The position numbers were made by a program, and so were the translations under genes. Under the pieces are notes generated by a model that did not search any database, was not told where the DNA came from, and saw only the letters and a program-made list of their open reading frames with translations. From the NCBI GenBank assembly GCA_951406725.2, contig OX597814.1:166656001-166720000 (forward strand): a DNA stretch of 64,000 nucleotides. The letters run 5' to 3'. The stretch is from Octopus vulgaris (Eukaryota). Of the stretch, positions 11,539 to 55,707 are shown piece by piece; the stretch's first letter is position 1, and every line of letters starts with the position of its first letter.

Positions 11539-12974
11539 ATTCTGTTGTCATGTTGCAGAAGTTAAGCATCATCACCATTTTAATGTCCACTTTTCCATGC
11601 TCAAATGGGTTGGATGGAATTTTGTTGAGGCAGATTTTCTACAGCCCGATACTCTTCCTGTCACTAACCCTCAAATATTTCCATGTAAAGTAATATTTCC
11701 CCATGACCAGACATGTTTTTGCAGAAGACTGAGAATAAAGGACACTGTGCTTACATGATGAAAACATTTGTTTACAACTATCATGTGATGCCAAAATAAG
11801 GAGACAGTAACACACACACACATATACAGATAGATAGATAGATAGATAAATGGATAGAGGACTGGCTTCTTGCAGTATCCATCTACCAAATCCACACACA
11901 AGGCTTTGGTCAGCCTGGGGTTAAAGGAAAAGACATTTGTCCAAAGTGCCATACAGTGAGATTGAACTTAAAATTTTTATGGTTGGGAAGCAAACTTCTT
12001 ACCACACAGCCACACCTGCACCTAAGAATACAAATAAATAATGTAAACCTTAACCTTATACAAAAATAACTGGTGGGCAACAAATTTCTTCTCTTTCTTT
12101 GACTATCGGTTCACTTTTAATCGGTGACATTTAGATTTCATCGATTATTACATAAACTAATAATTACACAACTCTTTTGATACTAAAGCCCACGAGACTG
12201 CTTCTGGTTTTATGATGTGTAACCTCTTGTTTCAAAGTGTCATGTTTAAATTAAAACCTTTAATCTCAATTTCATGTGAAGAAGTTTTGTCACGATATCT
12301 TCTAAGCAGCAGCTTAATAAAGAAAAAAAAAATTAATTATATTACCAAATCGCTCCAAATTATAGGTTATTAACGAAATTAATTGAAACATATGGATAGT
12401 GTATAACATTTATTTTACATCTGTTTTTCTATGCTAGCATGGGTTAGACGAATATGTATAACTGTAGCATTGTTTTAGAGCTGACTATTCTTCTTGTTGC
12501 TAATTTTTAACTATTGTTCAAGTGAGTTTTTATTCAGCTCATCTTTGAAAATACAAATTTGTTGACAGGGAAATGACAACAGGGATGACTGTCCATAATT
12601 CAGCAGTTTTTCTTGTGGTTGCATTTTTCATATAATTTCAAAATACAAAGTATTACTCAGATACATCCATGCATACACACACATACACAGACACACACAC
12701 AAATACAAAAACACATACATATCGTGGCTTGCTCAACACTGACATGTCACGCATTATAACAATGTACTTCATCATCTGCATGATTGGCATACCTCGCTGA
12801 CTGCTTTTCTTTATTTTGCACACAGACCATGACACAGAGGGGGACGGCACAAGGACAGATAGAACACCACAGTGGGGACACAAAACATAAAACGAATGAA
12901 TGAAATGGATAATAATTAATGAGGATGTAATGGCTACTTGAACCCCACCCTCAAGCAGTAACATTTAACTGTTT

Positions 12975-13343
12975 TTTTACTCTTTTACTTGTTTCAGTCA
13001 TTTGACTGTGGCCATGCTGGAGCGCCACCTTTAGTGAAGCAAGTTGACCCCCAGGACTTATTCTTTGTAAGCCAAGTACTTATTCTATCGGTCTCTTTTG
13101 CCAAACCACTAAGTTACGGAGACGAAAACACACCAGCATCGGTTGTCAAGCGATGTTGGGAGGACAAACACACACAAACACATATATATATACACACATA
13201 TATGCAATGGGTTTATTTCAGTTTCCGTCTATCAAATCCATCCACAAGGCTTTGGTCAGCCCGAGGCTACAGTAGAAGACACTTGCCTAAGGTGCCACGT
13301 AGTGGGACTGAACTCGGAACTTACACACAGCTACTCCTATGCC
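12975..13343 (-). mobile_element. tRNA-derived SINE, family A (nested in the ORF1-only element)
   Basis: GGCATAGGAGT...GTTCAGTCCCACT...GGCACCTTAGGCAAGTG head, internal (TA)/(TG) tract and ...AAATGACTGAAACAAGTAAAAGA tail. Confidence 0.85.
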
Positions 13344-13477
13344 TTTTTATAAAAAGTTTTTATATCATTTTTTTTCCTCTTTTCCTTTTTAGCATCATAT
13401 ATGTAGTCTCTTCTAACAAAATTTTAAAAGTTTACTCACGCTTTACATGTTTGTGCATGGCTTCAAATCTACATAAT

Positions 13478-14697
13478 CTATAAAAGGTCATCAAACTCTA
13501 CCTCCACTCCCAATGGGTCTATGTTGGTTCCAAACCTTTCTTTTAATTTTCCATACCTCTCTATTACTATGCCTTTTGTATTTTCTGTGTAAAGCTCCGC
13601 TGGTAATTTTACTCTAATTACCGATTTGAATTTGGTTATTTTCCTTTATATCGTCGTACTTTTTGTAAATGTTACCATATTCCATTTATTTTTCCTGGGC
13701 TTTTTAACTGTTGTTTCTGTGGTGAACTTGCGTTGTCTGGGTAGGTTTCCTTTTGCTGGTGATGCTGGTGGAGATGTGAACCAAATAAGCTGTGCAATGT
13801 CCATTTCACTCTCCTTTTTTTTTTTTGGACTCTTCGGAGGTGAGTTCACTAAATCTTTTCTTTTTCTCCTGGTCACCTCTGTAAATGCTTCCTCTGTGCA
13901 TTTCTCACTTACTAGGGCCGCCACTTCAACACTCTACTCCTGCTGGCTTTCCTCGTTTTTACTGTCTCTTTGGGGGCACCTTATTCTAATGTGTCCCTTC
14001 TCTCTGCATTGATAGCAGGTTGGTAGTCTTCCTCCCATACCACCCTCAACCTTATATCCTCCAGCAGAATCACCTCTTCAGTGATTTTGTTCAAATCTTT
14101 TTGTCCAACCTGAATGACGATTTCCAGGCCATATCCCCATCAATATACCTTCTTTGTCCTTGTCACCTTTAAAATTTTGGTGTCCTCCTCAGTTTTATGC
14201 ATTATGGCTGCCACCAGCTATGCTTCTTTGATTTCTGGGGGTACCCTGCCTATTCTAACTCTGGCAGCCCTATTGCCACAGTAGGTTGGCAGGAGTACCC
14301 ATTTCTTGTGTCCTGAGCGTCACAGTGGCGTGATTTATTGCCTCCTGTTTGTTGGCAAACCTCACCTCCACTGTGCCATATTTTCTGCCTCTTGTGTAGA
14401 ATGTTGTCAGGTTCTTTATCTCCTAAAGACATTCTTCTGTTGCTTCTACTGTGACGATTTTGATTTTCTTGGTAGTTGTAGATAGTGTTCTGTAAAAGAC
14501 TGTTCGCTTCATTGTATTGGTTGTCACTTCTTCTGGTAGGGTCAACTTGATCTCTCCTTCTGAATCAGCCTGTTATACTCTTTCAGATTCTTCTGCTCAA
14601 TTTTGATTTCTTGTACTTCTAGTGTATCTGTAGTTGTACATTTTCCAGCCGCTGAAGCATAACTCCTGACATGTGCTGGAACTGGTTCACAATCCAT
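13478..14697 (-). pseudogene. Decayed gag-like ORF1 with CCHC zinc knuckle
   Basis: About 400 codons with stops and frameshifts: MDCEPVPAHVRSYASAA...RGRKYGTVEVRF...GRLPTCYQCREKGHIRIRCP...FTEVTRRKRK... The CX2CX4HX4C motif is at ~13976-14017; SYA and F-x-x-V-x-RRK motifs are typical of LINE ORF1p. Confidence 0.8.
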
Positions 14698-16467
14698 TTT
14701 CTCTTTTTTTTTTTCCCTTCGCCCCAAATAGGGAAGAAGGTAAACATAAAAATCACAAATCTGCAGGCAAAAACAGTAACGGTATTTTACAAATTCAACA
14801 ATTTAAATCATAGGTTCACGCTCGCAGGAGACCCTTCAACAAGTATATAACAAAGCACAACACGACTTACATCAACTGGAATCAAAAATGATTTAACACT
14901 AACAAAAATACCTCGCAGACTGACACCACTTGTTGTGTCTGTCCACTATTTATTTATAGTGGAACAGCCCACTTCTCTCACTCGGGGATATCCTCCACAA
15001 CATCTCCCCTTTTGAGATTATTTTCTTTACACAGCATTATATTCCCCCATTTTTTTTCTTCTTCACACAGCATTATTATATATATATATTTTTTTTTTAT
15101 ATTCCATTTCTTTTTCTTCCACGCACAATTTTTTTTTCCCAGAATGCCCCAGGTAGTACTGGCTCTACATTCTTACCAGTAGCACTACGAACACATGGCA
15201 ACCTGACTGAAATCCTTCAACGGACATGCATTATTATTATTATTTTTATTTTATTCTTCTTCACACAGCATTATTATATATATATATTTTTTTTTCCACA
15301 TTCCATTTCTTTTTCTTCCATACACAGAATTTTGTTCTCCAAAATGCCCCAGGTAGTACTGGCTCTACATTCTTACCAGTAGTGCTATGAACATATGAGC
15401 GACCTGACTGAAATTCTTCAAATGGAATTTTTTTTTTTTTTTGGTGTCCCACTGTTGTGGAGTGCGTGAAAATTAGAATCCTCGTCAACACTTTTACAAG
15501 GTGAGAGGATTTTTAATATTTTCCACTGTGTGTAGTTCAAATCCTTCAACAGGATTTTTAATATTTTCCACTGAATGTAGTTAAAATTCTTCTTCAATAG
15601 GATTTTAAATATTTTCCCGTGTGTAGTTCGAACCCTTGTCACCACTGTTGTGTTTTGCTTGACACTGATATGTCCCACATTATAACAGCATACTTCGTCA
15701 TCTGAGTGACTGGCCTGAATGGTGTACCTCACCGACTGACACCACTTGTTGTGTCTGTCCACTATTTATTTGTAGTGGAAGAGCCCATTCCTCTCACTCA
15801 GGGGTGTCCTCCACAATACACATATATATATATAAAACAGGCTTCCATACAGTTTCCATCAACTAATTTCTTCACAAAGCATAGCTCATCTCACAGCTAT
15901 AATACTAGAAGACATTTAATCCTTTAATGTTCAGATTACTTTGTCAAATATAATGCTTTTTATTCAAATTATTTTTAATTAATCATCATGCATTATTTTA
16001 TAGCTTTGAGGTATTAATGATATGATTGCTTATATTTAGAATGTTAGTGTAGGTTAAGTGTGAGAGGTTAGATATGGCCAGTTTGAATGTAAAACAGAAT
16101 ATTTGAGCTGGATTTGGCTGGTTTAAATGCTGAAAAGGTTTAGGTGCTGTGCAGCGGGACTGAACCTAAAATCACATGGCTGCAAAGTAAGCTTCTTAAC
16201 CACACAGCTTAACCATGCTTATTTCATTATAAATATTCTTTCATTCTTTTACTTGTTTCAGTCATTTGACTGTGGCTATACTGGAGCACCACCTTAAAGG
16301 ACCTTTTAGTTGAAGAAATCGACCCTAGGGCTTATTCTTTGTTAGCCTAGTACTTATTCTATTGGTCACTTTTGCCGAACTGCTAAGTTACAGCAACATA
16401 AACACATCAATATCAGTTGTAAAGTGATGGGGGGGGGGGACAAACACAAAGACACACACACACATGA

Positions 16468-16498
<31 letters not shown>

Positions 16499-17938
16499 GC
16501 AGGCTTCTTTCAGTTTTCACTCACAAGGCTTTATGTTCAGGAAAGGAATAAATCAATTTGGCACACTTTTCCAGTGGCCATTGTTGTTTATAGCAGTACA
16601 ATACAATAGGGAGATTTTTGCAATGGTTGTTCAACCTGCTGAAAATAGCAGCTAAATCTCCCTTAATTCACACTTTGCCTTTTTAAACTATGAAAAGACA
16701 CATTAAATACTCTTGTCTTCCATACACCTAAAATGGCAGAGTTGGCTGGCCACAACTGAAACACCTTACATCACAGAGCTTGATCAGGATTGACCTGTGG
16801 TTAAACACCACCATCACCACCAAAAATCATTTACATTTCAAACTATTGAGTGGGTATGAGACATTTTGGAACAGCCATTTTGGCACCACCTATTTGGTGT
16901 CACTGATTCTATGCCAACTTATATGACATCAGACATTAATCTTAATGTTTCATTTTAATGACTCCCTTGTTGGCTTCTCTCTCTCACACACACTCTCTCT
17001 CTCTCTCTCTTTCACTCTCTTTCTCTCTCTTTGTCTATGTGGGTGAGCATCTAGTTATGTTTGTATGTATGTCTAATGTCTCTCCCTCTCTCTGTCTCTC
17101 TCTTACTCTCTCTATTGTCTTAAGATTAGGATACATTTAGTGACATCATTATTGAGCAGATTTAGATTACAACAAAAGAAATAATTAGCTCTTATTTGGA
17201 ACAATTAATTTACATGTTGTTAACATGTCAGAGGACCAAGATATGTGATGCACTGCTGTACTCAAGAAGACCTACTCACCACAACAGAATTGAGATCCTT
17301 AAGGCACCGAGCTGACAGAAACATTAGCACACCAGGTGAAATGCTTAACAGTATTTCGTCTGTATATAATTCTAAGTTCAAATTCCGCCGAGGTCCACTT
17401 TGCCTTTCATCCTTTCGGGGTCGATGAATTAAGTACCAGTTGCATACTGGGGTCGATCTAATCGACTTAATCCATTTGTCTGTCCTTGTTTATCCCCTCT
17501 GTGTGTAACCCCTTGTGGAAAGTTAAGAATTGAGATCCTAAAACCATGGTGCCATGTAAAAAGTACCGGTGCTGATGCCACATGAAAAGCAACCAGTACA
17601 TTCTGTAAAGTGGCTGGACTTACGAAGGGCATCCAGCAGTAGGGACCAAACCAAAACAGACAACAGAACCTGGTGTAGTCCTTGGCCTTGCCAGTACCTT
17701 TTTATGTGGCACCATCACCAGTGCGTTTTACTTTGTACCTTGGTTTTAGGATAACAATTCTGTTGTGGTAGGCAACTCTTCTTGAGTACAGCAATACACC
17801 AGTAGCTTAAGTTTCAACAGGAGCAAAGGGTGCAAACATTTTAAAAAATATGATAAATTTCTTTTTAAATGTGTCATGTTAATTTGAAACAGTTAAAACA
17901 TCTGGGGTACTTTTAACTCTTTAGCATTCATATTACAT

Positions 17939-54620: not shown

Positions 54621-55707
<1,087 letters not shown>

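Follow-up and report, generated by a model that had tools for sequence, protein, structure and literature searches.

The DNA examined here, referred to as the window, is a stretch of 64,000 nucleotides from the genome of Octopus vulgaris; on its minus strand, at 12804-14907, it holds an element related to the long interspersed nuclear elements (LINEs) that has the first open reading frame (ORF1) of such elements and lacks the second (ORF2). The window copy is one dead copy, and it very probably belongs to a many-copy, LINE-derived, ORF1-only family that inserts at a fixed site of a long terminal repeat (LTR), likely by means of the endonuclease and reverse transcriptase (RT) of a full-length Tx1-like LINE targeting the same site. 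The features of the locus, in window coordinates, are as follows (TSD, target site duplication; UTR, untranslated region; SINE, short interspersed nuclear element):

12740..12803, minus strand: interrupted host LTR, 3' half, ending in CA
12789..12803, minus strand: 3' copy of the TSD, identical to 14908..14922 at 14 of 15 positions; the motif recurs at other copies
12804-14907, minus strand: ORF1-only element, between the TSDs
12804..12975, minus strand: 3' UTR and conserved tail, terminating in AATAAA and a short A-rich stretch
~12976..13343, minus strand (presumed from a tRNA-like head): nested SINE, a later insertion from a very abundant family
13344..13477, minus strand: portion of the 3' UTR preceding the SINE
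13478..14697, minus strand: decayed ORF1 of ~406 codons, with the ATG at 14697 and the stop at 13478 (1220 nt)
~13976..14017, minus strand: single CCHC zinc knuckle (Pfam zf-CCHC, 21.7 bits, cut-off 20.8)
14698..14907, minus strand: 5' UTR of 210 nt with a T run at its start; this 5' end is common to many copies
14908..14922, minus strand: 5' copy of the TSD, within the host LTR; the motif recurs at other copies
14908..15002, minus strand: interrupted host LTR, 5' half, starting with TG; a purine tract lies before it at 15003-15015
15003..15665, minus strand: internal region of the host LTR element, largely made of 200-nt and 45-nt tandem repeats, with no coding sign seen
15666..15818, minus strand: second host LTR, uninterrupted, 153 nt, with an empty target site

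An earlier note on this DNA, made from the letters alone, had described a half-LINE with a clean 15-bp TSD, a gag-like CCHC ORF1 relic of about 400 codons, some 300 bp of 3' UTR once the nested SINE was removed, a 3' tail, and neither endonuclease nor RT. The TSD has the length given, though it is not clean, as one position in 15 differs. As for the relic, its size and its knuckle hold, with the frame broken by three frameshifts and five in-frame stops in the three-frame translation. The 3' UTR measures ~306 nt after subtraction of the SINE, the quoted tail is present in the element, and a tblastn search in which intact ORF2 proteins from this genome were the queries found no endonuclease or RT sequence in it. 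The SINE has 21 further matches within the window; the other copies of the family are without it, and their flanks join directly at that point. Elsewhere in the window, 54770-55300 is a 3' fragment of an ORF2 belonging to this LINE group, with an identity of up to 70% to locus L189, and all the window hits listed by tblastn fall there.

Pieces of ORF1 are also found, with 0-3 differences, in contigs of public DNA runs (four runs, four organism codes), and the 3' junction of the element is spanned without any difference by one contig; therefore, the element is not an assembly artefact. Among the contigs listed, none covers the whole element.

The insertion site

The most distinctive trait of the element is one that the earlier note, correct in reading an insertion with a TSD, had missed: the landing is site-specific, and it is within an LTR. 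On each side of the element lies one half of the same short LTR; of the two LTRs at this locus, the downstream one is split and the upstream one is empty. The host repeat is ~152 nt long, runs from TG to CA, and has the insertion site ~80 nt in; it is often followed by a primer-binding-like sequence, with an internal start after 10 of 18 parsed repeats. A 5-bp TSD of the host repeat itself was found in two of eight others by script, and in two more by eye after register correction (solo copies), and the purine tract before the second repeat of the pair is present in L062, L068, L082, and the window. Judged by its sequence, the target is the LTR of a short, non-coding LTR element similar to the terminal-repeat retrotransposons in miniature (TRIMs). 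The Rfam scan of 12400-16600 returned nothing near the gathering score, hence the target does not belong to any known family of RNA genes. The host LTR element (window 12740-15818) appears undescribed, and some of its copies occur in LTR-interior-LTR-interior runs.

Regarding the recurrence of the site, the 30 best tail matches were read by eye: 21 run into the same downstream sequence and three into the same motif of 14-15 bases followed by another element, so that the LTR site is the end of 24 of the 30; under a looser rule, the target motif is found at 0.22% (0.0022) of random window positions. This count is used in place of an automatic flank count (22/31), which includes loci from junction searches; automatic finding of tails and TSDs also gave false calls in some rows. 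At L249, L253, L254, L256, and L260, two different ORF1-only families are stacked within one LTR, with a TSD between them.

The ORF1-only family and its protein

The DNA search of the genome gave at least 54 matches (best 40 of 489 candidates scored), many of them near full length and with 71-83% identity, while the protein search scored 143 of 13,900 first-look ORF1 candidates, an indefinite share of which is autonomous. ORF1 and 3' UTR are joined directly to the tail, with no SINE, in 17 of 29 other loci, and the remaining 12 break off before the tail; the non-autonomous family proposed in the earlier note is borne out by this shared ORF1-to-tail junction.

The absence of ORF2 was evaluated on the 184 distinct ORF1 cores present among the loci collected at that time, with L006, a natural stop-free ORF1 of the family, as reference. 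At a threshold of at least 43% identity to L006, 130 cores were retained, 23 of which were dropped for a flank shorter than 1.7 kb; an ORF2 start within 1.7 kb was found behind 0 of the other 107 (106 distinct, as the window copy was counted twice). The same test was positive behind 21 cores, all less than 43% identical to the reference, and 16 further distant cores were also without ORF2. The possibility raised in the earlier note, that all other copies carry ORF2 and that the window copy is a one-off deletion, is not what the sampled copies display. In terms of age, the nearest-neighbour identity of the ORF1-only cores has a median of 86%, and besides the window duplicate only one pair, likely a segmental copy, is more than 95% identical; the sampled copies are therefore old. 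As a family, they encode a LINE ORF1 that evolved under purifying selection, lack ORF2 as a common trait, and are dispersed in the genome with a LINE-type 3' tail and a TSD.

Two further types of copies were met during this survey. At L045:1437-1660, a short non-coding derivative of the family that keeps only the 5' and the 3' ends lies at the same LTR site. L002:3590-4399 and L185 belong to another ORF1-only group, which is similar in ORF1 and in tail to other autonomous families and is possibly of separate origin.

As for the ancestry of the protein, intact LINEs with an APE-RT-zf-RVT ORF2 of ~1130 aa are numerous in the genome. Their ORF1 aligns end to end with that of the family, with 29-40% identity over the core, they share the tail motif with it, and their TSDs are mostly of 15 bp. 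Six homologous proteins were found in a public collection, five of them from Octopus bimaculoides. Besides two predicted RNA recognition motif (RRM)-like domains and one CCHC knuckle, ORF1 has a charged linker and a stretch of conserved sequence at the C-terminus, the fold being taken from the structure model of L121, an intact ORF1-only relative; this model has a mean pLDDT of 63 (67-88 in the core), with two alpha/beta domains and the knuckle. The predicted domain 1 matches RRMs (nucleolin, Z 8.6, root-mean-square deviation 2.3, 75 aligned), the predicted domain 2 matches RRM- and ACT-like folds with Z of 7.3-7.7, and Foldseek ranked tandem-RRM proteins first for the same model. The homology to LINE ORF1, together with the RRM-like predicted fold, indicates that the ORF is not an LTR gag, the second outcome by which the earlier note would have been refuted: the protein is a LINE ORF1p. 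ZCCHC3-like RNA-binding domains in ORF1 are linked to Tx1, and an atlas score of 0.89 gave a lead, with no Pfam support, to a ZCCHC3-type ORF1 likeness.

Selection on ORF1, a check suggested in the earlier note, was assessed from the ratio of nonsynonymous to synonymous substitution rates (dN/dS) on 90 ORF1-only rows. The ratio is below 1 in 1877 of 1880 measurable pairs, which are not independent of each other, and its median falls from 0.55 where dS is low to 0.17 where dS is saturated. Among the 27 closest rows, the N/S of singleton variants, which include 20 stops, is 0.86 of neutral, whereas that of variants shared by at least three rows is 0.08 (Fisher p 1.7e-34). This contrast is as predicted by selection in the transposing lineages followed by neutral decay; on such sequence evidence, ORF1 was functional in the source copies, and the suggestion that the family supplies its own ORF1p in cis gains support from the purifying selection. 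A singleton ratio of 2.76 obtained in the 90-row set arose because the synonymous codon types had been exhausted; it was discarded as an artefact.

The ORF1 tree has 37 rows, after removal of seven long or doubtful ones and thinning of the main clade to 16 rows. In this tree, the main ORF1-only rows are on one side (94/93), with no autonomous row inside; a quick tree of 67 rows agrees. A single origin of all the ORF1-only rows is not rejected by the approximately unbiased test (p-AU 0.33), so several origins are not established.

A candidate partner LINE and the alternatives

At the LTR site, 30 distinct 3' junctions were collected: 17 have ORF1 upstream, 12 have neither ORF, and one has the end of an ORF2. 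The candidate partner was found with a DNA search across the tail-LTR junction, followed by a search with that ORF2 end, and its family consists of L343-L348 and L377. Six copies match from the ORF2 end through the tail, and all six are in the same LTR, five of them directly at the motif. L377 is complete, with LTR half, TSD, 5' UTR, ORF1, ORF2, tail, TSD, and LTR half in this order, and with 5526 nt between the TSDs. The partner copies are 74-89% identical to each other and the ORF1-only family has similar values, which fits an overlapping activity of the two. Over the last 56 bases, the partner tails match four ORF1-only tails at 37-42 positions, the range for nine other LINE tails being 29-37. 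The shared target and the similar tail of this full-length LINE support the borrowing of its ORF2p, and the ORF2-bearing LINE at the same LTR is the likely enzyme donor. In the ORF1 trees, a clade of 18 ORF1-only rows and L377 is not rejected (p-AU 0.07), nor is a deeper sister relation of the family and L377; together with L381 and L382, these rows form one weakly supported side (64/89).

A short non-coding derivative of the partner, with only its 5' and 3' ends kept, is found at the same LTR site (L290:950-1520). L210 was considered as a partner and rejected: it has its own LINE tail, the matching tail belongs to a separate short copy behind it, and no other hit spans both. Exact tail-plus-site patterns, used as a partner finder, matched 19 and 12 times, with no true partner among these matches.

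In the mechanism proposed, a source copy would be transcribed and its RNA translated into ORF1p, which would coat and chaperone the same RNA in cis; the conserved tail would recruit the ORF2p of the partner, and its endonuclease would nick both strands of the LTR site, ~15 nt apart. Target-primed reverse transcription, which is established LINE biology, would then insert the copy and duplicate the site, giving the TSD of 14-15 bp, and the duplicated site could be used again, leading to head-to-tail stacks of different families. Target choice is described in PMC4494074 as set mainly by the endonuclease.

Several points weigh against this scheme. Six of the 30 best tail matches end elsewhere, and the tail identity ranges of the partner and of the other LINEs touch at 37/56, so that a tail-specific recognition is not established. 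The partner copies are all decayed, their ORF1 is only ~33% identical to that of the family, and the tree test rejects (p-AU 0.003) a grouping of L377 alone with the 16 ORF1-only rows sampled; given the last two results, the family is not a recent deletion of the partner, and it is, to judge from the sequences, a lineage of some age that has tail and target in common with it. Regarding the protein, the fold is predicted for a relative only and its best Z of 8.6 is close to the level of a common arrangement, the Pfam model for the ZCCHC3 RNA-binding domain had no match in 20 ORF1 proteins, and the profile comparison with the fish ZCCHC3-type ORF1 aligned the knuckle alone. Finally, no RNA run is among the public sequencing runs listed as matching.

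The touching tail ranges and the six tails at other sites also speak for a looser arrangement with no dedicated partner, in which a loose shared tail motif would let many Tx1-like ORF2 proteins mobilise the family, and the LTR site would reflect the enzyme abundant at that time; indeed, a GTCC...AATAAA motif is common to all the LINE tails examined, and L130 combines the tail type of one subfamily with the target of another. This arrangement is regarded as rather unlikely, because 24 of the 30 tails are at one site despite the numerous intact LINE families with other flanks, and because the LINE family at the LTR site is also the one with the most similar tail. Very improbable is a passive multiplication, by which a single ORF2-deleted LINE copy in the LTR would have been carried along by the host LTR element or spread through segmental duplication. 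It would explain why most copies are at the same position of the same repeat, and a few near-duplicate loci exist (L028/L029; L140/L322); however, usually only one of the two LTRs is interrupted, either the upstream or the downstream one (window, L007, L013, L045), different families and the autonomous LINE occupy the same site and are stacked with TSDs between them, related ORF1-only subfamilies lie in other targets, and purifying selection on ORF1 is unexpected for a passenger. To the reading of the ORF as the gag gene of the flanking LTR element, practically no credence is given: the CCHC knuckle and the position between LTR sequences agree with it, but the ORF is inside one LTR and splits it with a TSD, empty LTRs are common, and both the end-to-end alignment with LINE ORF1 proteins and the predicted fold, RRM-like and not capsid-like, place it with LINE ORF1.

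As for the clade, these elements are likely members of Tx1. In the RT tree, which has neither a named Tx1 nor a named L1 reference, the octopus ORF2 proteins are in one clade among coral and fish relatives; the elements have the Tx1-type layout (two ORFs, with APE, RT, and a C-terminal zinc domain, and a CCHC ORF1), which is common to some L1-clade elements and thus not exclusive, and they have a target-sequence preference, a trait reported for many Tx1 families in PMC4494074. Alternatively, the elements could be members of the L1 clade in the strict sense, and would then represent an invertebrate HAL1 instead of deriving from Tx1: among PDB entries, a local ORF2 matches human L1 ORF2p best (E 5e-70), and no named Tx1 protein was recovered in the searches. 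This placement is considered unlikely, as the PDB list is without a full Tx1 ORF2 as competitor, among named proteins the best relative of ORF2 comes from a fish and carries CCHC and RNA-binding domains of ZCCHC3 type, and the predicted two RRM-like domains with a knuckle of ORF1 are unlike the mammalian L1 ORF1p, which consists of a coiled-coil, an RRM, and a C-terminal domain (CTD). Moreover, the preference for transposon targets is described for Tx1 in PMC4494074.

Known systems and sister subfamilies

Work on HAL1 (half-L1), the ORF1-only relative of mammalian L1, reportedly goes back to Smit in 1999 and to Bao and Jurka in 2010. The octopus family resembles it in encoding ORF1p only, in keeping the 5' and 3' parts of a LINE and a long-maintained ORF1, and in a probable need for ORF2p in trans; PMC5753468 and PMC3627910 state that mammalian HAL1 kept its ORF1 coding capacity over long periods. 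The differences are the invertebrate host, the two-RRM and CCHC ORF1p, the site-specific insertion into a mobile element, the head-to-tail stacks, and the likely Tx1 ancestry. In the strict sense, HAL1 implies derivation from a mammalian-type L1 and a coiled-coil-RRM-CTD ORF1p; the ORF1 of the octopus family, with its CCHC knuckle and two predicted RRM-like domains, does not correspond to this, and its named homologues are octopus proteins only.

HeT-A of Drosophila forms head-to-tail arrays at a special target. Like the octopus family, HeT-A and Ag-Sponge of Anopheles are ORF1-only non-autonomous LINEs; the LINEs of this kind named in the available text of PMC5786205 are HeT-A (Jockey), HAL1 (L1), and Ag-Sponge (CR1), none of them from Tx1. 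The octopus family differs in its clade and in its target, an interspersed LTR and not the chromosome ends, and no host benefit is evident.

Insertion into mobile elements is itself known for Tx1: PMC4494074 reports Xenopus Tx1 in Tx1D, crocodilian Tx1-Mar, and Tx1-8_Crp and Tx1-4_AMi in LTR retrotransposons. The likeness lies in the sequence-specific insertion into a mobile element, LTR elements included; these Tx1 elements are autonomous, whereas the octopus element is without ORF2, and their direct counterpart is the partner family (L343-L348, L377). SINEU-3, which rides Tx1-Mar, is similar for being non-autonomous, for sharing the transposon target of its partner, for a TSD of ~16 bp, and for tandem copies with the TSD between them (PMC4494074); SINEU elements are non-coding with a head derived from small nuclear RNA, whereas the octopus element encodes its own ORF1p. 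The host element shares with TRIMs (PMC3532108) the short LTRs, the short non-coding interior, and the many solo LTRs; it is TRIM-like by these features and is matched to no named TRIM family.

In the main texts searched, a scope outside which lie Repbase, Dfam, and supplements, no report was found of an ORF1-only, site-specific Tx1-like family. PMC13282606 counts the L1-Tx1 families of an octopus, and in the part of its main text available ORF1 and target sites are unmentioned; PMC10294476, in its available part, adds nothing on ORF1-only site-specific families. A HAL1-like way of life and a Tx1-like targeting of a mobile element are each known; their combination in the octopus family, with an identifiable partner, is well supported, and no paper combining the two was found. 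With this family, ORF1-only parasitism on LINEs extends to one more lineage, likely of Tx1, and to one with site-specific insertion. In addition, the borrowed enzyme can be recognised by the target that it leaves as a fingerprint, and this makes the HAL1 question testable, namely why ORF1p must be supplied in cis while ORF2p can come from another element, and whether lineages of this kind survive their partners by changing to new ones. The 13,900 first-look ORF1 candidates, an indefinite share of them autonomous, point to a large class of octopus repeats that an RT-based LINE annotation would overlook.

Related ORF1-only elements, mostly of 1.6-1.9 kb and with TSDs of 13-15 bp, end at several other recurring sequences, and at L130, mentioned above, the tail type and the target are those of different subfamilies. 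For another subfamily, the target is a palindromic repeat: 26 of 30 loci are insertions, of which 16 have ORF1 upstream, nine have neither ORF, and one has an ORF2 end with a different tail. At L398, L399, L406, and L411, this repeat, similar to a miniature inverted-repeat transposable element, is hit by the ORF1-only subfamily and by at least one ORF2-bearing LINE. The chances are about even that all these elements form a single ancient octopus clade, which would have evolved alone until its synonymous sites were saturated and would have survived by switching among site-specific Tx1-like partners; its subfamilies would differ in tails and hosts (LTR, palindromic repeat, SINE head), with each host also hit by an ORF2-bearing LINE. 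The palindromic-repeat result would be one data point for partner switching and not its demonstration. If switching did occur, the clade would live as a protein-coding parasite on LINEs that are in turn parasites of other mobile elements, and it would offer a natural series to find which features of the tail and of ORF1p decide the ORF2p recruited.

Two more observations concern the autonomous LINEs. A young family (L349-L356, L379, L381, L382) has near-identical 3' ends and inserts at one position within the abundant SINE; of eight ends examined, including the related L350, seven continue into the SINE and the remaining one reaches the same motif. The family is a LINE that targets a SINE. Finally, L177 (G000:C2:73046133-73068136) contains five head-to-tail LINE copies with a spacing of ~5.4 kb, three of them with an open frame of 1140 aa, and with the TSD between the units.

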